DNA from: a virus
Taxonomy: Duplodnaviria; Heunggongvirae; Uroviricota; Caudoviricetes
IMG/VR virus record: IMGVR_UViG_2654587772_000002
Strand: one strand, 5' to 3'
Length of the DNA: 64,000 nt
In this document: piece by piece, positions 4,779 to 53,213 of the stretch
Layout: each line of letters starts with the position of its first letter
Numbering within the stretch: position 1 is the stretch's first letter
Translations under genes and position numbers: made by a program
The notes under the pieces: model-generated
Seen by the model: only the letters and a program-made list of their open reading frames with translations
Database searches by the model: none
Told to the model about the DNA's origin: nothing

Positions 4779-5650
4779 GTGCGCCCAGCATGGGCGCGAT
4801 CTTGGAGGTGAAAGCCCTCCCGCGAGCTGACCACAGCGAGCGAAAGGAAGTGCAACTGCGTGAGGGCGGCTAGGCGTGGGGAGGAAGCACGGAATGAACC
4901 CGTGAGCCGATGAACAAGAATCGGATATGAGGCGCGATGGAGCAAGGCGAGCAGGCACATCACTGCGAAGCTTTCGTGACAAAGTCGCGTAGATCCGACG
5001 GTTGTGCGGGGAAGGATCGCGTTCTTACCTGGGGAGTTCTCGCCTCATGCCTGAAAGGGCAACGTCGTAAGACGGAGCGAGAAGTCAGCAGAGGCCGTAG
5101 TAGTCAGGACTCCGACGAAGGGCCGAACGAGAAGGAAAGCCAAAAGATATGACTCTTGACAGGACATTGCGTCAGAAGCCGGGGAAGCCCGGTACGGACC
5201 CGCATGCCGGGTGGTGTGGCAGGGGCGCAGCCTTGTGCTCCCCCCTATGCCGATCAAGCAGAACATTGTGCTGGGCCTCTGACGCATCTCCTTGATGGTC
5301 TTGGCATCGTGCTTAAGTGGATTGGTGTCGTCTCTGATAGGCTCATGGAGGCAGAATGAAACTCAAAAATCCGGGACAGCACGCAAAACAGGCTGCACAA
5401 AAAGCGCAGGTTGCGTAGGAGTGGAATCCCGCTCCCAAAAAATGGTGCAGAAGTTGCGGCAGTGGTCATCCGACGCACTGGAAAATAACAAACCCGCCGT
5501 GACCAGAATCGGAGGCCTGAGGGAGTGACCGTAAAACCGGATAACCCAGGCAGCAAATACCCGCTGGATGAGGCATGGTTCCGGCAGATAATACCGAAAA
5601 CCGCCAGACACACTGGATAATCAGTAGAAATAACCCATTAAAATCATTAT
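4779..5650 (+). mobile_element. GC-rich non-coding region with a group II intron-like 5' end (GUGCG plus first stem); possibly an ORF-less or degenerate intron; 3' boundary unknown
   Basis: GTGCGCCCAGCATGGGCGCG at about 4779 resembles the canonical group II 5' end and first domain I hairpin. An 8-bp hairpin (CCTCCACG...CGTGGAGG) lies just upstream. No long ORF on either strand and no reverse transcriptase. I could not identify a canonical domain V by eye. Confidence 0.3.
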
Positions 5651-5674
5651 AATAATTGGGCACATTATTATATT

Positions 5675-6238
5675 ATGCTGAATAATAGAGACATGAATAT
5701 TAATGAACTTAAAGACTGTATTCACTATGAAGTAATCGGTAGCGAGCGTCCTTTCTCCTGGCGAAAGGCAATTGTTCGCGCAATAAAACATAGAAGAGTT
5801 CGTTATTTATTTTGGTGGCGCATAGCCAAATACCTTTTTGATAAAGGCGGATACTGTCGGAAGATTGCGGGGAAAATGGAACGTTTCATTCTTGATAAAT
5901 ATAGTGTAACAGTCCCTTTAACTGTAAATATAGGGAAAGGCTTTGATATTTCTTATCTCAACGGTGTTGTTATCGGTCACAAAGTAACCATTGGTGAAAA
6001 TTGTTCAATAAAACCAGGGGTAACTATTGGGCTACGTGGTGATTTTAATGATATGGATATTGTTATAGGACATAATGTGACCATTGGTTGTAATGCCACC
6101 ATTCTTGGTGGCAAAGTGCGTATAGGAAACAATGTCACAATAGGTGCTCATGCATTGGTATTGCATGATATTCCTGATGATTCAACATTCATCACTAAAT
6201 TTCAGTCTGAAGTTATCTGCTCGTCCTCTTGCACATAA
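5675..6238 (+). CDS. Hexapeptide-repeat acetyltransferase, serine O-acetyltransferase (CysE)-like
   Basis: Tandem [LIV]-G-x-x-x-x hexapeptide repeats ([21 protein letters not shown]...[32 protein letters not shown]) after a CysE-like N-terminal helical segment. AT-rich, and on the opposite strand to the flanking phage genes. Confidence 0.8.
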
Positions 6239-6819
6239 CCCTGATTCATCAGCTCTGGCCATACGATATCCGGAGCTGTACTGGTGTCAATTCGACTCAC
6301 TAATACTCTGTATTTTCTCCAGGAATCCAGTTGTGAATTTTCCTCGGTTGTTGCTATTTCAAGATTAACTGCATCCTGCAGAATTGCGATGTTATCTGTT
6401 GCCTCCTGAATCAACCTTGCCTTTTTCTCTTCCGCTTCCCGTATCCGAAACAGTTTTTCTGCTTCCTCATCCTTCACCCAGGATACGCCGTCCCACTTCT
6501 GATACTCCCCTGCTGGCGACAACCAGGTGACATTCTCTGGTAACGGTCCGAGTTCAGAAATAAACAACGCGTCCCCCGATGCCACGTCATAGACCGTTTT
6601 ACCACGATGGTCTTCAACAATAATCCATGATTCATTTTCACTGTTAAAAACTGCCACAAAGCCAGCAGGAATTTCCGGTGGGGCGATATCTGTAGAATTA
6701 GCTGGTAGCCCTGTATGAGGTGGAATATATGCGTCACCTTCACCAATAAACTCATTAGTTCCGGCGAGCAGGTTATAAATTTTTACAGTACGTGATTGTT
6801 CACTCATTCTGAATGCCAT
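6202..6819 (-). CDS. tfa: Tail fibre assembly protein (Tfa/gpU family)
   Basis: N-terminus [54 protein letters not shown] is typical of the enterobacterial Tfa family. Sits immediately downstream of the tail fibre gene. Confidence 0.85.
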
Positions 6820-7997: not shown

Positions 7998-10897
7998 TAA
8001 ATAACCTCAGCCATTTGTTGGTCTGTTAATGCTTTATGCCATATTCTGAAATTTCTGATATGACCAAATAAATGACGTAACCCTGCTGTAGTCTGGCCTC
8101 CAATACGGATGGTTGCAGAGTTCTGAATATAGGACCATGTCGTCTTTGTTTCGCTGGATATGCGCCCGTTACTTACTGAGCACGTAGACTGATCTGATTT
8201 TACACGCATCCCCATAACCATTTTTTCAAGCAATGCGTTTTCGTTTACCCGTCTGTTAGCTCCTCCAATATCGCAATAAGGAAATCCGTCGTAATCTGCT
8301 GAAGAACCGAAGCCAAGAATAATAGCCGCTCCGGTTTGATGACCGCCGGTATCAAAAACACGTGGCGCTGCATTTGGCGTTTTATACCAGTTCTTATGTA
8401 CCTCACAAAGAACCGTAAAAGGAAGATTATAAAGATTATTATTAATTGGAACTGTAACTATATCGCTTGCGCGGGTAGCCGCCGTCGTTCCCGAGATAAT
8501 AAAAGATGATGCACACGAACCATCCTCAACCTGAGGGGTGGACAGATAAATATAGTCTCCAGATATGGTTGCTCCGCCCTGCTTAGGAGAATACTGTATC
8601 TGAGATCCTATTTTTAACTCATCATCAATTGCCTGGATTGTTGCCTCTGCAAAAATCCATCCGGTAGCTTCGTCCTTTCTGACTCTCGCTGTAATCCTTG
8701 AGGCCGCGCCACCTGTCATATTAATTTCAAGCGTTTGTGTATCAATATATGCATCACCAAGAAAAGTTGTTGCACTACCGTCATATTTATCAAAGCGGAT
8801 ACGTAACCTTACCTGTCGTTCTGTTTTAAAACGACATGAGGTTGTCACGTACTTGTTATCGCCTGAAACATCAACTGACTTTGTAGCAGCAATTGATGCC
8901 ATATTAATGGCTGACGTTTGCCCAATCAGAGAATCGTTACAGACAAACTTTCCATAGGTAAAACCAAAACTATCCGTCCCGGTTTCGGGAACATCCATAT
9001 TTGACGAGCGCCCCCAACTGGCAGGGTTTTCCGAATTGAGCATGTAGTTTGTTCGTTGTCCCTCAATAAGCAGACCATCACGTTCAAATCGTGGCTCGTC
9101 AATGGCAGCCTCTGTCAGCACACCAGATTTATTTATATAGGTTGCTTTCGATGCGCGTTTAAACTTAACAACCTTGTCGCCAGGCATTGTTATTTCGTCG
9201 TCGCCAATAACAATCTTTTTATATGATGGAGAAAAGCCCGCAATCATATCCAGCGAATCGTTAAACGGTATCCACACATCTGGCAGCGGTTGAATAATCT
9301 TCCTGGCATCCTCCAGTGACAATGCTTCGACATCCGAAGCTGTTAAAGAAATATCTGCCGAACCGTCAAATGAAACGTTGTTAATCATCCGTGCTGTTTT
9401 TAATTTCGTTGCGGTGTCGGCGTTCCCCATCAGTGCGCCGGTGATCCCGCCGTTGAAAGTCTGGCGTGCACTCCATGTGTTAGCCGTGCTCAACAGGGGG
9501 ATCTTTTCACCGCTTGTGCCGAGTTCTCTTAAACCAAGGTATTGGATAACAGCAAGGACGCTTGTTTTGGACAGAATATCGCGACCGACTGACGTTAAGT
9601 CAGTCTGAGAAACAGTGTCTGTACCGGTAAAGTACGGCAGTTTATTTGCGCCTGTAGCAAGACCAGCAAGCGCGGTTAAAGTTGCATCCAGAGGCTGTTT
9701 GCCTGCCAGCGCATTTGTCATTGTTGTCGCAAAGTTCGGGTCATTACCAAGTGCTGCGGCAAGCTCATTCAGGGTATCAAGAGCTTCTGGTGATGAACCA
9801 ACCAATGCGGATATGGCAGCTCTTACATAAGCAGTCGTAGCAATCTGCGTATTATTTGTGCCCTGCGCAGCCGTAGGCGCAGTAGGGACTCCCGTTAATG
9901 CAGGGCTTGCCAAAGGCGCTTTGAGGGCTAGGGCATTGTTGATAGTTGTGCTGAAATTCGGGTCGTTATTGATCGCAGCAGCTATTTCTTTAAGCGTATC
10001 CAGTGTGCCAGGTGCACCGTTGATAAGTGCCGTTATAGCTGACTTAACAAAGGCTGTATTTGCGATCTGCGTGCTATTTGTACCTTGCGCTGCCGTCGGC
10101 GCGGTTGGCGTTCCTGTCAGACTCGGGCTTTCTATTGGCGCTTTGGTATCAGCAAGACCTTTTACAGACTTAACGGCTTTAGGGGTAGCCGCCATTGTTT
10201 CGCTGTCGCTGTTAGTTTCGCTACTGAGCTGAACTAATCCCTTTTGCGTTGTGCTTGCATCCTGTGCCGTATACTTGCTTTTCGCCAGATCGTAGGCTTT
10301 TTTAGCTGCCAGCGAACTTGCAGCAACATCACTTCTGCTACTGGTTACAGAGTCTGAAATATCAATGCCGATCGTGCGGTTAATACGCTCGGATGTATCA
10401 ATCATCTCCTGGGTAATGGCTGATACGCCAGCAGGGATATTCACCGTACAAACAAGCAGCTCTCCATCTCCTAACTGATATGAATCGGTATAGGTTCTGG
10501 CAACAAATTCAGCCGCATGAATATGTGACGCGGTATTAACCTGATAGGTATCCTCTCCAAGGAGGTATCTTCCCTTCAGCACAATTGCATATTTCTTGCC
10601 TTCACTAAGTGCAAGAGAAATATCCTTACGGTGCCGAATAGTTACCTGGTAGAATTCACCAATATCCACTGACGCAGCGCCAGCAGTTTTATCACCATCC
10701 ACTGAGGTGATTAACAGGTTCATACCACCGCCAGGCTTCGGCAGGAAACCGGCATAAAACCCAGGATCAACAATTCCCCTGAATTTTCGGTTTAGCGCGG
10801 CTGACAGATATGGTTCGTGGTATTGCACATCAGCCACCAGAGCCAGTGACTCGGGCGATGGGTAAGTAACTGATGTAACAACTGTAACGTCATTCAT
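7997..10897 (-). CDS. Long tail fibre protein (Stf / gpS-like), about 966 aa from the internal Met
   Basis: Start set by codon arithmetic at Met30 (MNDVTVV...). Contains the TQKGLVQLSSETNSDSETMAATPKAVKSV fibre motif, collagen-like Ala/Thr/Pro repeats, and the junction motif [26 protein letters not shown] followed by its own C-terminal domain. Confidence 0.85.
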   Translation of the reverse strand: MNDVTVVTSVTYPSPESLALVADVQYHEPYLSAALNRKFRGIVDPGFYAGFLPKPGGGMNLLITSVDGDKTAGAASVDIGEFYQVTIRHRKDISLALSEGKKYAIVLKGRYLLGEDTYQVNTASHIHAAEFVARTYTDSYQLGDGELLVCTVNIPAGVSAITQEMIDTSERINRTIGIDISDSVTSSRSDVAASSLAAKKAYDLAKSKYTAQDASTTQKGLVQLSSETNSDSETMAATPKAVKSVKGLADTKAPIESPSLTGTPTAPTAAQGTNSTQIANTAFVKSAITALINGAPGTLDTLKEIAAAINNDPNFSTTINNALALKAPLASPALTGVPTAPTAAQGTNNTQIATTAYVRAAISALVGSSPEALDTLNELAAALGNDPNFATTMTNALAGKQPLDATLTALAGLATGANKLPYFTGTDTVSQTDLTSVGRDILSKTSVLAVIQYLGLRELGTSGEKIPLLSTANTWSARQTFNGGITGALMGNADTATKLKTARMINNVSFDGSADISLTASDVEALSLEDARKIIQPLPDVWIPFNDSLDMIAGFSPSYKKIVIGDDEITMPGDKVVKFKRASKATYINKSGVLTEAAIDEPRFERDGLLIEGQRTNYMLNSENPASWGRSSNMDVPETGTDSFGFTYGKFVCNDSLIGQTSAINMASIAATKSVDVSGDNKYVTTSCRFKTERQVRLRIRFDKYDGSATTFLGDAYIDTQTLEINMTGGAASRITARVRKDEATGWIFAEATIQAIDDELKIGSQIQYSPKQGGATISGDYIYLSTPQVEDGSCASSFIISGTTAATRASDIVTVPINNNLYNLPFTVLCEVHKNWYKTPNAAPRVFDTGGHQTGAAIILGFGSSADYDGFPYCDIGGANRRVNENALLEKMVMGMRVKSDQSTCSVSNGRISSETKTTWSYIQNSATIRIGGQTTAGLRHLFGHIRNFRIWHKALTDQQMAEVI

Positions 10898-42746: not shown

Positions 42747-44222
42747 TTAGGAGCGCCAAAAAAAACCTGAAAACAATATAATAACAGGATAAATTTCAAG
42801 GCGACCAAGAATCATAGCTATGCACATTAAACATTTTGCAATGTCATTAAGCACTCCGAATGACGATGCAGTAGCCCCAAAACCTAATCCCATATTATTA
42901 ATACATGCAGCCACTGTTGCAAATGATGTAAGAAAATCATATCCCATACCATTTAACACCAGTATAAAAAACACCGTGAAGAGAGTATAAAGAAAAAAGA
43001 AACTCCATACAGACCTCATTACACGATCTGTAACTATCTTCCCTCCTACATTTACACTCAACAACGCTCTGGGATGAGAAAGCTGATTTATCTCGTGTTT
43101 GCTTTGTTTGAAAAGTATAAGAAATCGAAGTGACTTAATTCCACCACAAGTTGAACCTATACATCCCCCAAAGAAACTTGACAACAGCAAAAACACTATC
43201 GTGTGCGTGGGCCAACTTGCATAATCCTGCGTAGCTAAACCATTATCAGTGAGCATGGAGCTGGCAAGAAAAAACGAATGAATAAAACTTCCATGCAAGT
43301 CATACATACCTATATGCCAGACCTGGAAAGAGGTAACAATGATCACCCCTAAGGCTATTAACAGAAAGAAACGAAGTTCAATATCTCTGATTAAAGGTTT
43401 TATCGTTTTCCTGCTAATAACAATATACCAAAGAGTGAAGTTGAAAGCCGATAGCAGGGAAAAAGAACCAGCCACCAGCTCAACCAAATAGTTATTAAAA
43501 TATCCGATACTCTCGCTATGAGTTGAGAAACCACCAAGCGAAACTGTGGAAATCCCGTGACAAATAGCATCAAACAAAGGCATTCCTGCAAGTCTATAAC
43601 AGACAATACAAGCAATACCTAATAAAGAATAAGTTATCCACAGTGTCCGTGACGTATCGGCCAGGCGGGGAGTGAGTTTGTCATCCTTAAATGGCCCCGG
43701 CATTTCTGACTGATAAAGCTTTGCACCACCAATACCCAATAATGGCAATACAGCAACCGCCAGAACAATAACTCCTAAACCACCTATAAAATTTAACTGT
43801 GACCGATAGTACAAATATGCCCGAGGTAATGAACTAACATCATCAATTACAGTTGCTCCTGTTGTTGTTATTCCAGAAACCCCTTCAAACAGAGCATCAA
43901 TGAACGTTAAATTAAGTTCTGAGTCAATCCATAAAGGGAATGCACTAATAACAGAAAACAAAATCCAAAACATTACAATTATAATAAACCCATCACGGGT
44001 ACGTAATTGAATGCCAGATTTCTTAGTTGTATACCACGCTCCGCCACCAATGCAAAAAAATATAACGAAAGTTATAAAGAAAACGAACAGGCTTTTTTCT
44101 TTATAAAACAATGCTACAACCATTGGTGGCAACATTGAAAGACTATAGAGCCAAACCAGGAACCCACACATATGAGTAACAACTCTTACATGAGATGTAT
44201 TCATATCTAAATATTCTTTCAA
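42747..44222 (-). CDS. trkG: TrkG/TrkH-family potassium uptake protein (491 aa)
   Basis: Multi-pass membrane protein with TrkH motifs (SGITTTGATV, EMPGP, GGFSTH, GSTCGGIK). AT-rich. Sits downstream of the lysis cassette as trkG does in Rac. Confidence 0.9.
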   Translation of the reverse strand: MKEYLDMNTSHVRVVTHMCGFLVWLYSLSMLPPMVVALFYKEKSLFVFFITFVIFFCIGGGAWYTTKKSGIQLRTRDGFIIIVMFWILFSVISAFPLWIDSELNLTFIDALFEGVSGITTTGATVIDDVSSLPRAYLYYRSQLNFIGGLGVIVLAVAVLPLLGIGGAKLYQSEMPGPFKDDKLTPRLADTSRTLWITYSLLGIACIVCYRLAGMPLFDAICHGISTVSLGGFSTHSESIGYFNNYLVELVAGSFSLLSAFNFTLWYIVISRKTIKPLIRDIELRFFLLIALGVIIVTSFQVWHIGMYDLHGSFIHSFFLASSMLTDNGLATQDYASWPTHTIVFLLLSSFFGGCIGSTCGGIKSLRFLILFKQSKHEINQLSHPRALLSVNVGGKIVTDRVMRSVWSFFFLYTLFTVFFILVLNGMGYDFLTSFATVAACINNMGLGFGATASSFGVLNDIAKCLMCIAMILGRLEIYPVIILFSGFFWRS

Positions 44223-44341: not shown

Positions 44342-44806
44342 TTACTTTAAACACTGCTCGGTTATGTATTGCTGAGCACCTTCAAGTTGGGCCTGCATCA
44401 TTACCAGTCGTTCCCGGAGGGTGAAATAATCCCGTTCAGCGGTGTCTGCCAGTCGGGGGGAGGCTGCATTATCCACGCCGGAGGCGGTGGTGGCTTCACG
44501 CACTGACTGACAGACTGCTTTGATGTGCAACCGACGACGACCAGCGGCAACATCATCACGCAGAACATCATTTTCAGCTTTCGCATCAGCTAACTCCTTC
44601 GTGTATTTTGCATCGAGCGCAGCAACATCACGCTGACGCATCTGCATGTCAGTAATTGCCGCGTTCGCCAGCTTCAGTTCTCTGGCATTTTTGTCGCGCT
44701 GTTCTTTGTAGGCGATGGCGTTATCACGGTAATGATTAACACCCCATGACAGGCAGACGACGATGCAGATAACCAGAGCGGAGATAATCGCGGTTACTCT
44801 GTTCAT
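44342..44806 (-). CDS. Rz: Rz (i-spanin)
   Basis: N-terminal TM anchor ([18 protein letters not shown]), coiled-coil periplasmic domain. Starts at the endolysin stop. Confidence 0.85.
44401..44586 (-). CDS. Rz1: Rz1 (o-spanin lipoprotein), embedded in the +1 frame of Rz
   Basis: Lipobox LVVVGC followed by a Pro-rich segment ([16 protein letters not shown]). Lies entirely within Rz on the same strand. Confidence 0.85.
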
Positions 44807-45300
44807 TGCTGACCCCACAAACAGATTTCACGCTCAATCTCACGACGAGTCATGAGACCTTTCCATTGCTTACCGCCAGCATATGTCCAGCGACGTAGCT
44901 GATCACATGCGCCTTTGATATCGCCCTGGTTTATTTTGCGAAGAAGCGTCGATGTTCTGAAATTGCCAGCACCCACGTTGTAAACGAATGAGTAAAGAGC
45001 GCCGCGCGTTGTTTCCGGTATATCGACTTTGATGTACGGGTTAATTTGTCTGGCGACCGTGGCAAGGTCTTTATTCAAGAGTGTTTTGCATTCTGCTTTG
45101 GTATACGTTTTACCGAGCATGATGTCTTTTCCTGTATGCCCGTGACATACAGTCCATACACCAACAATATCTTTGTATGGTATGTAGCTGACACCTTCCA
45201 GACCATCGTTACCACTTGGGCCAGTGATTAACACTGATGCTATAGCAATTGCTCCGCCACCAATAGCAGCAGCAACGACTTTTCGTAATGATGGAGGCAT
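44803..45300 (-). CDS. R: SAR endolysin (phage 21 R-type lysozyme)
   Basis: N-terminal signal-anchor-release segment ([20 protein letters not shown]) followed by a T4-lysozyme-family catalytic domain. Close match to R21 as recalled. Confidence 0.9.
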
Positions 45301-45515
45301 TATTCACCTCTCGCAGCCTTGCGCTTATCTTCTTTAATCTTGAAATAAAGGTTTGTCAGGTACGTCAGCAGGCCAAATACCAGACTACCCAGCACACCGA
45401 TTGCAGCCCACTGTGACGGAGTTACTCTATCGAGCAACTGTAAAAACCAGTAGCCAGCACTGCCTGCGGAGGTGCCGTAGGCAATGCCTGTTGAAATTTT
45501 GTCCATGGATTTCAT
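45300..45515 (-). CDS. S: Pinholin (phage 21 S-type), dual-start motif MKSMDK
   Basis: [26 protein letters not shown]...[11 protein letters not shown]...[18 protein letters not shown] matches S21 as recalled. Start set by codon arithmetic at Met20 of the listed ORF. Confidence 0.9.
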
Positions 45516-45766
45516 AGCCTCACCTCCGCACGGAACGGATGGCATAGTTATTATGTGTAGGCTTTCAGACACATCAATCAGAGCCTTAATTGATATATAT
45601 GCTGGAGACGATGCAATATAAAAAGCTCGCCGTAGCGAGCTAATAAAATGTATTTCTCTGATATTATGTTTATTTGTATTAGCTCAGACTTGACATCACA
45701 GGTTTCGTATATAGAACATCATCAAATCTGTCAGTTTGCTATGAATGAGATATAGTAACTGAAGAG

Positions 45767-46162
45767 CTAACCTCGCATGTCAAAGCCAGATTTCTGAAAA
45801 TCTCTGTAGACTTCCGGATTGTTGAAGGCCGGAAATTTGGCTTTATGAGCTGCGGACTTTATCGCTTCGCAATAGGCTTTATCACCGTTACTGGTAGATA
45901 TTTTTAACGCCGTACCATCCTGAGAGAATTCCATATGCAACCTGCATTTTTTCCCTTTCCAGTTATGCGGCTCATCAAGTTTGGCATTAATTGCAGCTCT
46001 GATTCCCCGCGCTTGCGCCCCCCATTCATCCTGATCATCCCAGCGTCCTGAACTGCAACTACCTGTAGCAGTAGTTTTGTGGCAATCTGAAGGGTGTAAA
46101 GGTGTGCATCCCGCAACAAAACCGACCCAAAAAGTCAACATAACGATTTTCTTTAATCCCAC
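45767..46162 (-). CDS. Lipoprotein with a TolA C-terminal-like domain (paralog 2, 131 aa)
   Basis: Signal peptide with lipobox FVAGC. Motifs WKGKKCRLHMEF and NPEVYRDFQ parallel those of the neighbouring paralog and of TolA domain III. Confidence 0.75.
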   Translation of the reverse strand: MGLKKIVMLTFWVGFVAGCTPLHPSDCHKTTATGSCSSGRWDDQDEWGAQARGIRAAINAKLDEPHNWKGKKCRLHMEFSQDGTALKISTSNGDKAYCEAIKSAAHKAKFPAFNNPEVYRDFQKSGFDMRG

Positions 46163-46312
46163 TTCTTGCTCCTCAATCCATTAAAATCTCAGCAATAGTA
46201 GTTGTTACGTCCGCCACTGGCTCAGAGCTGACTATCCGCTAAATTTAGCTCAGTGCCGTAGCTGTGTCAGAACAAACCTAAGCCGAAACCGTTTATTACA
46301 AAACAATAAATA

Positions 46313-46741
46313 TCAGGGTTTAAAATCCAGCACCCCATTTTGAAATACTTTATATACTTCCGGCGAAGGGGGGGCAGGTATATCAGCATTCTTTATCGCA
46401 TTCATCGCTTCACGACATAAATCGAGGTCTCCACTTTCTCTTTTAACCTCCAGTAGAAGGCCATTCGGGGCCATATGCATTCTCAGTGTACACTCTTTTC
46501 CTGAATACTTACTCGCATCCCCGAACTGTTTTTCGATGGCGCTCTTGATTTGATGGGCATACAGACGGATATCCTCACTAACATCAGAAGTACGTTCAGA
46601 TGAACTCACATACTGTGTCTCTATTGCTTTATCGGAGTAATATGATGTACGGTCATGATAATTTGTCGATACAGCATCAGTGCACCCGATAATAATCCCA
46701 CTAATAATCAACGTAAGAATTGATGCGCTACGAAAACCCAT
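46313..46741 (-). CDS. Lipoprotein with a TolA C-terminal domain III-like domain (paralog 1, 142 aa)
   Basis: Signal peptide with lipobox IIIGC. C-terminal 85 aa (YAHQIKSAIEKQFGDASKYSGKECTLRMHMAPNGLLLEVKRESGDLDLCREAMNAIKNADIPAPPSPEVYKVFQNGVLDFKP) aligns almost motif-for-motif with the E. coli TolA C-terminus as I recall it. Confidence 0.8.
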   Translation of the reverse strand: MGFRSASILTLIISGIIIGCTDAVSTNYHDRTSYYSDKAIETQYVSSSERTSDVSEDIRLYAHQIKSAIEKQFGDASKYSGKECTLRMHMAPNGLLLEVKRESGDLDLCREAMNAIKNADIPAPPSPEVYKVFQNGVLDFKP

Positions 46742-46769
46742 TTTTCCTCACATATGTCATATAGTAAAG

Positions 46770-46800
46770 GATTATATATACCGTTGTTTTGGACGCTCAA
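46770..46800 (-). promoter_or_regulatory. Candidate sigma70 promoter for the TolA-like lipoprotein gene (approximate position)
   Basis: On the coding strand: TTGAGC, a 16-18 bp spacer, TATAAT, then a GAGGA RBS about 35 nt before the ATG. Confidence 0.4.
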
Positions 46801-47329
46801 ACAGCGAATCAGATCAAATAAAACGCACATTTGTTAACATTTACACAAAGTCTGCGTGGGATATTCTGAAAGAATATCCATAATGTGGAGAGAATCTATT
46901 GAAGTGCATGGTGCCGGGTGCCTCCCGGTGAACAAAATGTTCGTGATACCTGTCGGCGACAGAAAAGGTTAATGGTATCACCCCACCGCACAGGGGGATT
47001 CACCATGCAGGAGTTTTCTTAGCAAACTCACTGCGCGCCCGGCAACTCCCAACCACATAAAATGCGGAGTTTGTGGTATTTATGCATATAACTCGCAGGA
47101 ATTATCTTAAAAAACTGATGTCGATCCGGATTAAAAAGAAGCAGGTCATCATCAGATGACTGGAAAAAAGGAAAACAAAAAATACTCATCATACAGTTTT
47201 GATTGCAGGGATGAGCCTGCTATGCACAATATGCAGAATATAAGCAAGATAAAAATATGCAGGCATATTATTTCGGATTTTGTTATTAACACAACCTTTT
47301 TAATAATCATTTGGCATACAATAAACCAG

Positions 47330-47358
47330 CCCAAAAAGAACCGCCTAAACAGGCGGTT
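47330..47358 (-). terminator. Hairpin followed by a T-run on the minus strand; candidate intrinsic terminator
   Basis: AACCGCCT-AAAC-AGGCGGTT stem-loop. On the minus strand it is followed by CTTTTTGGG. Confidence 0.4.
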
Positions 47359-47682
47359 GGTCAATACAAAGGATGCTTCGTCTTTATTATAGTAATCTGA
47401 GGCGTCGAGTGTCTTGTATCAGACAACATATTGTCCCGCTAAACAGCGAATTACAAACCACCCTGCAATGATCTCTCATCTCATTTTATATGAGTTGACG
47501 ACATCAGGATAACGCATCATCAGCCCCTGCCAAGAAATATCAAAACTCCCGCCAGCAATGTGTTATCACAATATTGTAAAAAAAACACAGCACCGAAACT
47601 ATAACTGGTCTCTGTTATAATTTGGAGCAGAAAGACCAGTTGCCCAACTAGCAGCATTCTCCCCTGCTTTCCTGACGTAAAA

Positions 47683-47785: not shown

Positions 47786-48328
47786 TCAAGCCATTTTCTC
47801 AGCAAATGATTCACGCATGGGAATATATAGGGCATACTCAGCAACAGCTAACCAATTAGCAATCCGTTTTTCGCATGTGCTAAAACACCACTCTGGGTGT
47901 GCATCATTTAGCAATTCAGCCATTTTGCGCTTAGTCATCCCCCGCCCTTCATAGCGTTGCCGGAGAATGCAAATCAATCCTGGATGCTCTGCCAGCACCT
48001 CACTTATGACTCGATCAATACATAACGCCTCTGCATCAGTACAATGCGCCAGCCAGCTCTTTTGCTTGCCGTTGATCATCTCTCGCAAAAACGCTTCCAG
48101 CTCAGCTTTCTCTATTCCCGCTTTTTTCATTCTGCGCAGGGCTTCATTAATGGCTGTTTTCGTCAGTTTTTTGGATGCCAACAACTGATTGAACATATTC
48201 CCTGACCTGCCACCGCCAATATACGACCAGCGCCCCCACATACGTAGTTTTCCCTGAATCCAGACACTTTCCAGCGTGGTGAGGCGAAGGTGTTCTCCGC
48301 TTTTTCCTGTATTCGTTGGGTAAATCAT
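47786..48328 (-). CDS. Putative late-gene antiterminator (Q-like), 180 aa
   Basis: Position: last gene before the terminator-like hairpins and the lysis cassette. No motif verified. Confidence 0.45.
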   Translation of the reverse strand: MIYPTNTGKSGEHLRLTTLESVWIQGKLRMWGRWSYIGGGRSGNMFNQLLASKKLTKTAINEALRRMKKAGIEKAELEAFLREMINGKQKSWLAHCTDAEALCIDRVISEVLAEHPGLICILRQRYEGRGMTKRKMAELLNDAHPEWCFSTCEKRIANWLAVAEYALYIPMRESFAEKMA

Positions 48329-49660: not shown

Positions 49661-49713
49661 TCAACAATTTGCACTTAAGGTATTTATTTTCCCAAACACA
49701 TAGAGAGTAAATT

Positions 49714-51105
49714 ATGACTGAGAACACGACTCCAACAGCAGACTTTAGTCCTAGTAAAAGATTTTTTGTGAGTATGCTAACTCGAGATATCGACTTAAAC
49801 GATGCCATACTTGATCTGCTTGATAACTGCGTCGATGGGGCTTTACGTACAATAAAAGACACAAAAAAAACTTCAAAACCATATGAAGGATTTTATGCGA
49901 AACTTACGATTAATAAAGATGTCTTTATTATAGAAGACAATTGCGGAGGTATCCCTAAAAGCTTCCGAGAATATGCTTTTAAAATGGGACGACCCCATCA
50001 AAAAGAAGAAGAAAATGAAGGCACCGTTGGCGTCTATGGTATTGGTATGAAAAGAGCCATTTTTAAAATGGGTAGAGATTGCTCAATACAATCGAATAAT
50101 CCCGATGGCGCATTCACTGTAGATATAACACCTGATTGGATCGATGGTGATGGTTGGAAAATACCGATGCACGAGAGTGACTATGATAACAAAAATCCAA
50201 CAGGCACAACTATAGAGATAAAAAAACTCCATTCTAATGTGGCACAAAAATTTAATGAGAGCACATATCTTACTGATCTCTTTTTACAGATAAAACACTC
50301 ATTGTCATTTATTATTCAAAAAGGATTTAAAATAGAATTAAATGGAGTTGTTGTTGAACATAATCCGATTAACATCATAACTGATCATTCTAAAATAGAA
50401 CCATACATATATAAAGCTAAAATAGACGATGTTGATATCGATTTAGTTGTTGGCTTCTATAAAAATTTAGAAGATGACAATGATGATGTTTTAGAAAAAA
50501 GGAGTTCTGATGATGCTGGATGGACTGTCATTTGCAATGACCGCGTTGTTCTATATTGTGATAAGACACATCTCACAGGTTGGGGCTTTGCTAATGTACC
50601 AAGGTTTCATACCCAATTTATAGCAATTTCTGGGGTTGTTCGCTTTACCAGTAAAAACCCAGAAAAATTACCAATAACAACAACGAAACGAGGTGTCGAT
50701 CTTAGTTCTACATTGTACAATGATGTACGAAATAAAATGATTGAAGGGATGATGCATTTTATTCGATTCACCAATCAGTGGAAAGGTGAGCATCTTGAAG
50801 AAGGGAAAAAATTACTTAAGTCAGCTCAGTCACATGAAGCTCAATCTTTATTTGAAATTACCCCACAATCAACTCCAGAAGATAAAAAAAATAACTGGTC
50901 CAACCCTAATAGAAACAAAAATGAGTGGCGATATACACCTAAGCTGCCTACCCCAGTAAAAAAAAGCTCTACTGTACGAATAATCTTCACCAGAGAGAAA
51001 GAAGATGTTAAAATTTTATCTAAATATTTCTTTGGACATGAAGATGCTAGCGCTTCTGATGTGGGGATGCAATGCTTTGATACGGTGATTGAAGAGGTGA
51101 AGTGA
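49714..51105 (+). CDS. GHKL-family (histidine kinase / MutL / MORC-like) ATPase, 463 aa
   Basis: Bergerat-fold motifs in order: N-box LDLLDNCVDGA, G1-box IIEDNCGGIP, G2-box GTVGVYGIGMKRAIF. AT-rich. No histidine-kinase dimerisation domain and no receiver domain recognised. Confidence 0.9.
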   Translation: MTENTTPTADFSPSKRFFVSMLTRDIDLNDAILDLLDNCVDGALRTIKDTKKTSKPYEGFYAKLTINKDVFIIEDNCGGIPKSFREYAFKMGRPHQKEEENEGTVGVYGIGMKRAIFKMGRDCSIQSNNPDGAFTVDITPDWIDGDGWKIPMHESDYDNKNPTGTTIEIKKLHSNVAQKFNESTYLTDLFLQIKHSLSFIIQKGFKIELNGVVVEHNPINIITDHSKIEPYIYKAKIDDVDIDLVVGFYKNLEDDNDDVLEKRSSDDAGWTVICNDRVVLYCDKTHLTGWGFANVPRFHTQFIAISGVVRFTSKNPEKLPITTTKRGVDLSSTLYNDVRNKMIEGMMHFIRFTNQWKGEHLEEGKKLLKSAQSHEAQSLFEITPQSTPEDKKNNWSNPNRNKNEWRYTPKLPTPVKKSSTVRIIFTREKEDVKILSKYFFGHEDASASDVGMQCFDTVIEEVK

Positions 51106-52094
51106 TGTCTGGACAATACATTCCCTATCACTTAAGGCATAATAAGTCTATTGATAGAGAGATTTTTCTCGAAAGCCTAAACCTCTTAAGCAAAAGACTA
51201 AATATTCAAGAATATACATATATAGGTTTTGGTGGTCCGATGCTTGAAGATTTTAGAATCATGCATAATCGTATCGCTCTTTCTGATATGATTTCTCTCG
51301 AAGAACAAGAGTCTACTCACATCAGACAAAAATATAATTTGCCTTATAATTGTATTGATTGTAAGCTAATATCAGCTCATGACTTTATTCTTGATTATAG
51401 TTTTTCTAAACCATCAATAACATGGTTAGACTATGCCTCCCCGAAAAAAATACAAACGGATCTAGATGATATACACTTACTAAGTACTAAAGTAAGCTCT
51501 TTTGATATTTTGAAGGTCACCTTCCCCATAAATCCTAGTTCTTATTACCAACGTAGAGTTGGAGAAAGTTTAGATATTTTTAAAGAAGCTTTTATTAATT
51601 CATTAAAATCATTGCTTGGGAAAAAGTATCTTGATTTTAATCTTCAGATATCAAATGCAGATCTTTCAGATCGTAAGATTAAAGCTCTTTTAATACGAAT
51701 TATTACAAACGCTTTTAGATCAGCAATAGAACGTGGTCTTTCAGGACGTAAGGATAAGATTCAGTATTACCCATTATCTTTAAATCAATATAATGATGGC
51801 AGTCATACCATGTTGACAATATCAGGTTTTTTCTCCTCAGAACAAGAATATATAGAGTTATCTAAGGCATGCGACCTTTCTAACTGGCAATTTTATTCAA
51901 CAAATTGGGAAGACGTGCAAGAAATAGCAATACCAACACTAACAATTAAAGAAAAGATAAATTTAGATAGTAAACTGCCTGATAAAGAAGCATATCAGGC
52001 AGCCGCTGAAGAGTTCTCTTTAAACGAAAATGAACGGGATAACTATTATAAATACTATAGGTTATACCCTAACTTCCAAAGAATTATGGTTTAA
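51105..52094 (+). CDS. Unknown protein (329 aa), translationally coupled to the GHKL ATPase
   Basis: Start overlaps the upstream stop (TGATG). No recognisable catalytic motif. Its 3' end overlaps the 3' end of the convergent methyltransferase by about 33 nt. Confidence 0.85.
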   Translation: MSGQYIPYHLRHNKSIDREIFLESLNLLSKRLNIQEYTYIGFGGPMLEDFRIMHNRIALSDMISLEEQESTHIRQKYNLPYNCIDCKLISAHDFILDYSFSKPSITWLDYASPKKIQTDLDDIHLLSTKVSSFDILKVTFPINPSSYYQRRVGESLDIFKEAFINSLKSLLGKKYLDFNLQISNADLSDRKIKALLIRIITNAFRSAIERGLSGRKDKIQYYPLSLNQYNDGSHTMLTISGFFSSEQEYIELSKACDLSNWQFYSTNWEDVQEIAIPTLTIKEKINLDSKLPDKEAYQAAAEEFSLNENERDNYYKYYRLYPNFQRIMV

Positions 52095-53213
52095 ATATTC
52101 GGGCTGTACTCTTTTATTTAATAAATTGTACAGCCCCTTTAATATATATTCAGCAACTATTGGTGACACGCTATTTCCTATTTGTCTGAAACTATGCCAT
52201 TTAGTTACATGAAAGCGAAACCAATCAGGGAAGCCTTGTAATCTAGCAGCTTCTCTTGGTGTAATCACTCTTGGATGATAAGGGTGGATCGGCCTGACGG
52301 CTTGAAAGCTTCCTTTATCTCTAGCGGTTCCCGCCCTTAAAGTCGGGCAAAAACCATTTGGATCTAATCTTGTAGATCTTGAAATTTTATCAGTTTCCCC
52401 AAAAGATAAGGAAGCATAACGCTCTTGGACGATTTTGCTATGTAATGTTCCGGTACATCCAGATATGATATTATTTTTTAACTTAGCGATCGATTCTGTA
52501 TCACCAACATTCCGAGGGATCTGCCCCCATAATTTTTCATAAAATCCCCCTTTTCGATCTTTTTTAATTGTTCGCCAACTCTCAGAGTCTGATTGCCAAT
52601 TGGCATCGATAATATCTGGTAATCCATACAAAGCATCTTTTACAGTAACCGGATCAATCATTTTAGGCATAAATACTTCATCTGAAATATCAAGCTTCAA
52701 TGATTTTTTTACACCGATAAAAAAATATCTAGTTCGAATAGTTGGAGCACCATAATCAGATGCTTTTACCTTGATGGGATCAAGAATATCATAATCACCG
52801 CTAACCAAATTAAATGCTTTATTTCTAATGCCAGAATATTTCTCTTGCATAATACCTGGAACATTTTCTGCCAAAAAGAATAATGGCTGTAATTCTGATA
52901 CTAAACGGTAGAAATGCATGTAAAGCTGATTCCTGCTATCATCAGGATTCCCCTTGCCTATTGAACTAAATCCTTGGCACGGAGGACCGCCAATAATACC
53001 ATCTATGGGCATATCGTTTTTAAAAAAACCCTTAATTATTTCTGCATTTAGTAAAGAAACATCTTCTTGGACGTGCAAACTTCTTGGAAAATTAATTGCG
53101 TGAGTATTAATAGCATGTTGATCAATTTCAACTGCCATTTTAACATCAAATCCAGCACGTGCAGCACCAAGACTTAGACCTCCAACGCCAGAAAACAAAT
53201 CTATTACATTCAT
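52062..53213 (-). CDS. DNA (cytosine-5)-methyltransferase, 383 aa
   Basis: Motif I DLFSGVGG, motif IV GGPPCQGFS, motif VI ENV, motif VIII Q.R.R-like. AT-rich. Confidence 0.95.
   Translation of the reverse strand: MNVIDLFSGVGGLSLGAARAGFDVKMAVEIDQHAINTHAINFPRSLHVQEDVSLLNAEIIKGFFKNDMPIDGIIGGPPCQGFSSIGKGNPDDSRNQLYMHFYRLVSELQPLFFLAENVPGIMQEKYSGIRNKAFNLVSGDYDILDPIKVKASDYGAPTIRTRYFFIGVKKSLKLDISDEVFMPKMIDPVTVKDALYGLPDIIDANWQSDSESWRTIKKDRKGGFYEKLWGQIPRNVGDTESIAKLKNNIISGCTGTLHSKIVQERYASLSFGETDKISRSTRLDPNGFCPTLRAGTARDKGSFQAVRPIHPYHPRVITPREAARLQGFPDWFRFHVTKWHSFRQIGNSVSPIVAEYILKGLYNLLNKRVQPEYLNHNSLEVRV

Follow-up and report, generated by a model that had tools for sequence, protein, structure and literature searches.

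What do two small genes with the C-terminal domain of a host envelope protein do between the late antiterminator and the holin of a prophage? The question is raised by a 64,000-nucleotide stretch of DNA (IMG/VR virus record IMGVR_UViG_2654587772_000002; the whole stretch is called the window below), an intact, apparently complete E. coli prophage of the Rac type with recET, kilR, sieB, racR, ydaST and trkG as well as terminase, capsid and tail genes. Both genes lie on the minus strand. The upstream one (46313..46741) starts with ATG and encodes 142 amino acids (aa), and the downstream one (45767..46162) starts with GTG and encodes 131 aa. As the initial annotation had proposed, each product carries a lipobox and a complete domain III of TolA (TolAIII). 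The reading we favour, to which we give a little less than an even chance, is that TolAIII tethered to the outer membrane competes with native TolA for its ligands and thereby makes the lysogen tolerant.

The N-terminus of the 142-aa protein, MGFRSASILTLIISGIIIGC followed by TD, carries Arg4 and a hydrophobic core ahead of the lipobox IIGC, which ends in Cys20. Lipoproteins were recognized by pattern only, namely a positive n-region, a hydrophobic core, the motif [LVI][ASTVI][GAS]C and a Cys at about position 15-35 (PROSITE PS51257 type). The signal peptide (46685-46741, minus strand here and for all following parts) and the predicted lipid-bearing Cys20 (46682-46684) precede a linker (46580-46681), within which the tether of residues 21-50 was predicted to be disordered, and TolAIII (46316-46579). 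Residues 55-142 aligned with E. coli TolA 334-421 without a gap to the last residue, with 52 of the 88 positions identical (59%). In this alignment the TolA motifs listed in the initial annotation (QIKSAIE, GK.CTLR, AP.G.LL..K.E.GD..LC and IP.PPS..VY.VF.N..LDFKP) proved to be truly common to both proteins. A phmmer search against PDB chains gave E=5e-28 to TolA, and PF06519 matched over profile positions 4-96 of 96 (E=2.4e-23, 82.6 bits; gathering score 25 bits). AlphaFold models were built from the family alignments and compared with the PDB by Foldseek. The 142-aa model matched 2x9a_B with a template modelling score (TM) of 0.96 and a root-mean-square deviation (rmsd) of 0.6 Å; its predicted local distance difference test (pLDDT) value was below 50 in the linker and 80-93 in the domain. 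A word-indexed search with the bare domain, aimed at its donor, returned family members only and no chromosomal TolA.

The 131-aa protein had been described as more divergent with the core retained, and the comparisons agreed with this. It aligned with TolA 341-419, again ungapped, at 27 of 79 identical positions (34%), PF06519 matched it with E=1.3e-14 (54.6 bits), and its model matched 3qdp (TM 0.92, rmsd 1.1 Å). The TolAIII fold, which the initial annotation had put forward to be checked, was thus found in both proteins by profile and by structure comparison. The N-terminus, (GTG)MGLKKIVMLTFWVGFVAGC followed by TP, has K4 and K5, the lipobox VAGC and Cys19. The signal peptide (46109-46162) is followed by a Cys-hairpin/Trp-acidic module (46019-46108), which begins with the predicted lipid-bearing Cys19 (46106-46108), and by TolAIII (45770-46018). 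A Shine-Dalgarno sequence lies upstream of each gene; that of the 131-aa gene is GAGGAG, 6 nt 5' of the GTG. RefSeq starts this gene at Met8 (124 aa), a start that drops the charged n-region and would make the Cys residue 12. We preferred the GTG start because it retains the n-region KK, a conserved feature of the family.

The N-terminal module distinguishes the 131-aa family. Its first 30 mature residues, C-x-PLHPSxCHKTTATGxCSSGRWDDQDEWG, were near-invariant across genera, with the core of the signal peptide varying freely. The module contains two extra Cys residues and was modelled as a small hairpin at moderate confidence (pLDDT 61-66). This conservation indicates that the module is a functional part of the protein and no passive tether. 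Its SGRWDDQDEWG segment loosely resembles the TolB box of colicin E9 (GSGWSSENNPWG). The resemblance was not accepted as evidence and counts as a weak lead only, as the Trp-Trp spacing is off by one residue from the colicin E9 box and the second Trp starts helix α1 of the domain in the model.

TolAIII (about residues 334-421; PDB 1TOL, 1S62, 3QDP and 2X9A) shares its fold with both proteins: the top Foldseek matches of both models in the PDB were all TolAIII, an α/β fold with a three-stranded sheet, at a domain pLDDT of 80-98. The Cys columns that match the C363/C388 disulfide of TolA were invariant in the family alignments, and the pair is kept in both proteins. The lipobox column was likewise invariant across 47 family members. 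The N-terminal transmembrane anchor (domain I) of TolA proper is missing in both, replaced by a lipoprotein signal peptide that ends in the lipobox Cys, and a short tether stands where TolA has its long Ala/Lys/Glu-rich helical domain II (142 and 131 aa, against a full length of about 420 aa). Neither gene belongs to the tolQRA-tolB-pal operon; both lie, within the Rac-type prophage, in the interval from the Q-like gene to the holin. The NCBIfam matches were confined to the C-terminal end of the profiles (positions 293-386 of 387 in NF007065, 265-362 of 362 in TIGR02794). With NF007065 both proteins scored under the cut-off of 213 bits (107.8 bits for the 142-aa and 53.7 bits for the 131-aa protein), and with TIGR02794 (cut-off 59.45 bits) the 142-aa protein scored above it at 75.6 bits and the 131-aa protein below it at 47.2 bits. 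Neither protein is TolA proper, and the RefSeq designation of the 142-aa open reading frame (ORF) as 'tolA: cell envelope integrity protein TolA' is an over-call, probably because the C-terminal match alone passes the TIGR02794 cut-off. RefSeq naming of the pair also includes 'cell envelope integrity TolA C-terminal domain-containing protein'. PHROG 5772, labelled 'unknown function', matched both at full length (128/128 profile positions; E=1.6e-62 for the 142-aa and 6.7e-65 for the 131-aa protein).

The surface that TolAIII offers to its ligands was examined in the 142-aa protein. TolB, the N1 domain of g3p and colicin N (ColN) dock on strand β3 of TolAIII by strand augmentation (PMC4339652; PMC7391070). 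In this strand the backbone of D418 and K420 binds g3p and ColN and is required for TolB-dependent envelope integrity (PMC4339652). The β3 strand of the 142-aa protein, LDFKP, is identical to TolA 417-421. The site of colicin A (ColA) on TolA is β2, 375-LLDIKP-380 (PMC4339652; PMC7391070), and this box is changed conservatively to LLEVKR. The ligand-binding strands of the 142-aa protein were not clearly more TolA-like than the rest of its domain, a comparison that discriminates between no hypotheses. Since strand augmentation engages mostly the backbone, such ligand-contact comparisons are suggestive and not decisive. Among database entries, P0010 (158 aa), a variant of the 142-aa protein, carries a near-C-terminal frameshift into the frame of a 40-aa ORF (46267-46389, minus strand). 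The frameshift replaces strand β3, and P0010 is thus a natural loss-of-β3 allele.

How could such a domain protect the lysogen? At position +2 both proteins have Thr and lack Asp, so that sorting to the outer membrane is predicted by the Lol rule. After lipidation at Cys20 or Cys19, the proteins would reach the outer membrane and display, on its periplasmic face, a tethered, free TolAIII. Having neither membrane anchor nor domain II, they could be coupled neither to TolQR nor to the proton-motive force and would only compete with native TolA. The ligands competed for would be the TolA-binding epitopes of the group A colicins (A, N, K and E1), the g3p N1 domain of filamentous phages and the N-terminal strand of TolB. 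Located beside the porins where the translocation domains of colicins emerge, the decoy would trap the invader in a dead-end complex, and the lysogen would become tolerant. The affinity of TolA for TolB is low, 4-200 µM overall (PMC7391070; PMC2707214) and 4.1 µM by surface plasmon resonance (PMC2707214), and that of colicins for TolA is about micromolar (PMC4339652). With these values, a modest dose of decoy could block invaders with little harm to Tol-Pal. Pal itself, which the initial annotation had also listed as a possible ligand, is doubtful in this role, since purified TolAIII shows no interaction with Pal (review PMC7391070).

An artificial counterpart of this arrangement exists. Levengood-Freyermuth et al. 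reportedly found in 1993 that exported TolAIII confers tolerance to group A colicins. In the periplasm the exported domain disturbs the envelope, and it serves as a tool for the release of periplasmic proteins (PMC6195910, citing Levengood-Freyermuth 1993 and Wan & Baneyx 1998). The recombinant domain, likewise a free domain III uncoupled from the motor, comes closest to a functional precedent for a dominant-negative or decoy effect. It is artificial, soluble and over-produced, whereas the prophage proteins are natural, predicted to be lipid-anchored, probably produced at a low level and diverged from the host domain.

Several natural exclusion systems resemble the proposed decoy in part. Boeke, Model and Zinder reportedly described in 1982 a g3p-mediated exclusion, in which resistance to superinfection by Ff phages and tolerance to colicins arise through the interface of g3p-N1 with TolAIII. 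The decoy would be the inverse of it: there the ligand from the Ff phage saturates the TolA of the host, and here TolAIII from the prophage would saturate the ligand. The Cor proteins of phi80, HK022 and N15 are, like Llp of T5, small superinfection-excluding phage lipoproteins in the inner leaflet of the outer membrane that protect by binding an envelope protein (for Llp, bioRxiv 10.64898/2026.03.26.714494). Llp and Cor have no sequence or fold kinship with the pair, and both inactivate FhuA, whereas the pair would mimic the periplasmic import hub. The morons found between Q and the holin (stx1/stx2, nanS-p and phage porins) have the same slot and anatomy, but the cargo here is a copy of an envelope-hub domain instead of a toxin, esterase or porin.

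The strongest comparative argument for a decoy role came from other small proteins of this kind. A TolAIII profile search of 1.84 billion cluster representatives at E<=0.001 yielded 550 TolAIII-bearing clusters. Among the best 150 clusters, at least 51 were proteins of 100-170 aa with a lipobox, TolAIII and very diverse tethers, and Asp at +2 occurred in none of these 51. Three cluster representatives (P0182, P0225 and P0240; 204-235 aa) have one lipobox and a TonB_C domain fused to TolA_C. The two domains also meet on 10-kb Klebsiella cloacin plasmids, where overlapping tandem genes for a 123-aa TolA-C and a 121-aa TonB-C protein stand beside the cloacin/immunity/lysis operon, as in the Klebsiella pneumoniae ColRNAI plasmid p1_090045 (locus L016, 3687-4420). 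About 660 Klebsiella plasmids had a TolA-C match, and a survey of Klebsiella bacteriocins mentions a 'TolA protein' on a cloacin plasmid (PMC10269471). On Klebsiella IncF/IncR plasmids (5229-6258 in both L098 and L099), a 182-aa thioredoxin-fold gene (DsbA/TraF-like) is followed by a 144-aa TolA-C gene in a conserved pair, with insertion sequences on the flanks. In prophage CP-933N of EDL933, a 108-aa TonB_C protein with a lipobox (VMGC followed by T; PF03544, E=5e-15) is encoded directly after Rz (L101, 28919-29245, minus strand), the position that bor occupies in lambda. It is named 'TonB-like membrane protein' in the proteome table of PMC11125564. A 'TolA' of the same paper (EDL933_2012, 32-fold up with ciprofloxacin) was considered as an expression lead and not used, for the paper's table lists this gene as a tail fibre protein.

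The obvious property common to TolA-C and TonB-C is that both are periplasmic hubs hijacked by bacteriocins (group A and group B, respectively) and by several phages. The association of the two domains thus points to a decoy role. As a tentative generalization, which we consider somewhat unlikely, mobile elements of the Enterobacteriaceae (lambdoid prophages, pO157-type plasmids, Klebsiella IncF/IncR plasmids, cloacin Col plasmids and chromosomal islets) may widely deploy lipid-tethered copies of the TolA and TonB hubs as an unrecognized 'import-hub decoy' immunity against bacteriocins and pilus- or Tol-dependent phages, whose translocation epitopes would be caught short of the energized machines. 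The window would then stack two decoys of different specificity.

Pairwise ratios of nonsynonymous to synonymous substitution rates (dN/dS) were 0.24-0.37 for the TolAIII part of the 142 family. In the 131 family they were 0.07-0.25 overall (dS 0.5-1.1), 0.06-0.17 in the domain and 0.01-0.26 in the N-module, the N-module being under as much constraint as the domain. These ratios indicate that both families are under purifying selection. The cassette (counted where at least 80% was present) occurred in 771 of 5426 complete E. coli genomes at a conservation of 98-100%, nearly always at 99% identity or more. The tandem pair was found at 35 IMG/VR loci, with at least two types of Q and two types of endolysin. 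The segment 47029-45299, from the STnc100 element through the holin, recurred at 97% identity in phage mEp460_ev081, after another Q and before another endolysin. Of 50,697 deposited phage genomes, this one alone carried the genes, and BFVD, a library of viral structures, had no match at E<=0.001. The family is therefore essentially a feature of prophages, plasmids and chromosomes.

The two proteins represent two families. The initial annotation had called the genes tandem paralogs, and their domains are indeed homologous. They are not the product of a recent tandem duplication, since identity between the proteins is only 28% and each family is also met without the other. The 142 family was apparently restricted to Escherichia and Shigella, and every 142-type gene found lay between Q and the holin. 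In O157-type prophages a 73%-identical 142-type gene without a 131 partner occupies the position of stx2AB in Stx2 phages, with Q-linked tRNAs ahead of it and STnc100/AsxR, nanS-p and the holin behind it, which supports the earlier comparison of this slot with that of stx. The 131 family (368 clusters) spans at least six genera, with members in Citrobacter, Enterobacter, Klebsiella, Raoultella, Serratia and Shigella. A lone chromosomal 131-type gene of the Enterobacter cloacae complex lies between genes for glutathione peroxidase and a RidA-family protein; in Serratia marcescens a 131-type gene lies between nrdDG and a GmrSD/HEPN pair, and in further prophages at the prophage edge. Plasmids of the pO157 type carry a 131-type copy with 88% nucleotide identity, and 525 plasmid places were counted among the complete E. 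coli genomes. In pTA116 (L015, 5964-6395) the copy lies 3' of psiB, psiA, hok and a truncated nikB and 5' of toxB, and the similarity to the window ends sharply at the gene borders. Accordingly, the earlier description of the proteins as phage-made holds for the pair, which lies in a prophage, and not for the 131 family, which includes plasmid and chromosomal-islet members. Because the 131 family is found far from lysis genes, on plasmids and in Enterobacter and Serratia, its distribution fits a function in the growing cell. F-like and I-like plasmids would gain directly from a decoy, since pilus-specific filamentous phages need TolA; PDB 2X9A is a complex of TolA with g3p of one filamentous phage, IF1.

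On the minus strand of the window the genes follow in the order NinB-like, HNH-like, Q-like, promoter-like site and terminator hairpins, STnc100, promoter-like site, 142-aa gene, 131-aa gene, terminator, EssD, signal-arrest-release (SAR) endolysin, Rz/Rz1 and trkG. The PHROG and terminator evidence agrees with the previous placement of the pair between a Q gene with terminator-like hairpins and a pinholin-type lysis cassette. Upstream, the slot is bordered by the Q-like late antiterminator of the DUF1133 type (47786..48328, minus strand), which matched phrog_753 'anti-termination protein Q-like' with E=2e-79 and is called a DUF1133 family protein in RefSeq. A candidate pR'/tR'-like region (47327..47415, minus strand), identified by consensus matches only, has a putative late promoter AAGACA-18-TATAAT (47415-47386) and then terminator hairpins at 47358-47339 (8-bp stem and T run) and 47343-47327. 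The STnc100-family element (46852..47038, minus strand; Rfam RF02076, full length, 86.6 bits against a gathering score of 47, E=1.6e-18) forms the left border of the mobile cassette. The two-gene unit is flanked by a sigma-70 promoter-like site (46771..46800, minus strand; TTGAGC-18-TATAAT, 10/12 positions, about 30 nt 5' of the ATG) and by a strong intrinsic terminator 5' of the holin (45624..45641, minus strand; AGCTCGCTACGGCGAGCT then TTTTATATTG).

These flanks give the pair a moron-like anatomy, and the cargo of the slot differs in EDL933 CP-933N on the same Rac-type backbone: the genes DUF1367-DUF1364-DUF1133 are shared, and tRNAs, TerB, DUF3927 and nanS-p stand in place of the pair. The unit would accordingly act as a moron, expressed from its own promoter in the lysogen and by late read-through of the Q-modified polymerase. 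The STnc100 element was seen repeatedly in such regions. In O157-type prophages it lies 3' of the 142-type gene beside AsxR (6578-6786 in L078), and at one locus (L090) it is present four times, including three consecutive copies (6515-6727, 8487-8682, 8747-8945 and 9007-9196). It may be a repeated linker for the exchange of late-region cassettes.

The downstream border of the slot is the lysis cassette (44342..45572, minus strand), assigned by PHROG lysis families and the RefSeq names essD and rrrD. It comprises the EssD holin (45300-45515/45572), the SAR-type endolysin RrrD (44803-45300), Rz (44342-44818) and Rz1 (44401-44586). The N-terminus of the endolysin and the holin bear a close resemblance to the SAR-endolysin/pinholin pair of phage 21. 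The trkG gene (42747-44222, minus strand) follows directly after Rz/Rz1. The Rac prophage of K-12 is without the late region, and the window prophage shows what the K-12 remnant has lost. On the other side of the slot, genes for a DNA cytosine methyltransferase, an O-methyltransferase and an ATP-binding protein lie between the replication genes and ninB (about 49700-53200; NZ_CP007394.1 2111805-2115304). The same methyltransferase/ATP-binding block is present in EDL933 CP-933N and may be a defence or anti-defence module.

Several observations weigh against the decoy. The outer-membrane location is a prediction from the +2 residue. Expression in the lysogen is predicted from a consensus promoter, and such matches were not significantly enriched in the region (11 promoter-like sites versus 7.0 +/- 2.9 in shuffled sequences). 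Of the sigma70-like promoter that had been assigned to the pair, the site itself is present, then, as a consensus match only. It is identical in mEp460_ev081 and is not conserved 5' of the O157-type relatives; the window-type and O157-type 142 genes have no related sequence upstream, so that conservation cannot support the promoter. Exported TolAIII makes cells leaky, and constitutive expression could therefore be costly. In place of the Tyr that adjoins F352 and has been implicated in TolB binding (PMC2707214), the 142-aa protein has Gly and the 131-aa protein Asp; both retain the Val of that double mutant. In the 131-aa protein both ligand-binding strands have diverged from TolA, with β3 reading FDMRG and the ColA-box site ALKIST. 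No functional study of these proteins was found in full-text searches of the literature, and neither protein matched any family of PADLOC-DB 2.0 at E<=0.1. Finally, a role at the time of lysis would suit the location within the late operon equally well, the holin being part of the segment that is shared.

Such a role would make the pair a helper of lysis or release. Late Q-dependent read-through would flood the periplasm with tethered TolAIII, which would titrate the N-terminus of TolB, uncouple Tol-Pal and loosen the outer membrane; the resulting blebbing would make lysis by pinholin, SAR endolysin and spanin faster or fuller, or would release vesicles or periplasmic contents. The unit does lie in the late operon directly 5' of the holin, the stretch in common with mEp460_ev081 (47029-45299) takes in the holin, and no 142-type gene was found outside the interval from Q to holin. 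The effect is also conceivable, as exported TolAIII releases periplasmic protein (PMC6195910) and tol-pal defects lead to hypervesiculation (PMC7391070). However, a promoter-like site and a terminator ahead of the holin belong to the unit itself, and a complete spanin pair is already there. The 131 family, moreover, is mostly located away from lysis genes, and related prophages with the same backbone lyse without the cassette. We therefore regard the lysis helper as unlikely. A further view, that the genes are functionless, decaying fragments of a captured tolA, could appeal to the RefSeq name 'tolA' for the 142-aa ORF and to the frameshifts or truncations of some database members. It is very improbable. 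Each gene has a proper lipoprotein signal peptide and a Shine-Dalgarno sequence, the cassette is conserved in the 771 E. coli genomes, the 131 family extends over its six or more genera, and dN/dS is well below 1 at a dS of 0.3-1.1; these selection data exclude the reading as dead fragments.

The same selection data bear on another alternative, in which TolAIII is a scaffold for a new ligand. The diverged ligand-binding strands of the 131-aa protein, together with its conserved additional N-module, suggest that it may bind another ligand than that of TolA. The scaffold and N-module would bind, for example, the periplasmic face of an outer-membrane receptor and so block a receptor of phages or bacteriocins, as Llp of T5 does with FhuA, or would clamp TolB through two sites; the 131 family is the likeliest candidate. 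Both strands are unlike TolA, yet the dN/dS of the domain is as low as given above, and the N-module has been held near-invariant across genera (0.01-0.26) with the signal peptide free to vary. Llp offers a precedent here too, being a small inner-leaflet outer-membrane lipoprotein that binds FhuA (bioRxiv 10.64898/2026.03.26.714494). On the other hand, no candidate ligand was identified, the hairpin was modelled at moderate confidence, and, with strand augmentation mostly a backbone interaction, side-chain changes are compatible with the classical ligands (PMC4339652). We consider a new ligand improbable, about as much so as the lysis helper. For the decoy, the preferred reading, the fold, the gene anatomy, the conserved contact strand, mobility, selection and context were observed, and we infer that the pair would be located in the outer membrane, be expressed in the lysogen, bind TolA ligands and protect the cell.

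The assignment of the domain was already public in the RefSeq names and in PHROG 5772, of which the two proteins are members, and these groupings carry no function. What appears to be new is the functional hypothesis, the recognition of two separate families, the presence of such a gene in the stx slot, the conserved N-module of 131-type proteins and the link to the TonB-C mini-proteins. If the decoy is true, the pair, present in about one seventh of the sequenced E. coli, would partly account for the widespread tolerance that is found naturally towards Tol-dependent colicins and filamentous phages; a 131-type relative is carried on the O157 virulence plasmid. The finding would then bear on bacteriocin and phage therapeutics and on competition in the gut. 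It would also provide Tol-Pal research with natural TolAIII variants that separate the binding of invaders from that of TolB. If the pair instead aids lysis, phages would tune the integrity of the outer membrane through Tol-Pal. As a decoy, it would represent a new principle of protection encoded by prophages and plasmids, in which the import hub is mimicked instead of a surface receptor being blocked.

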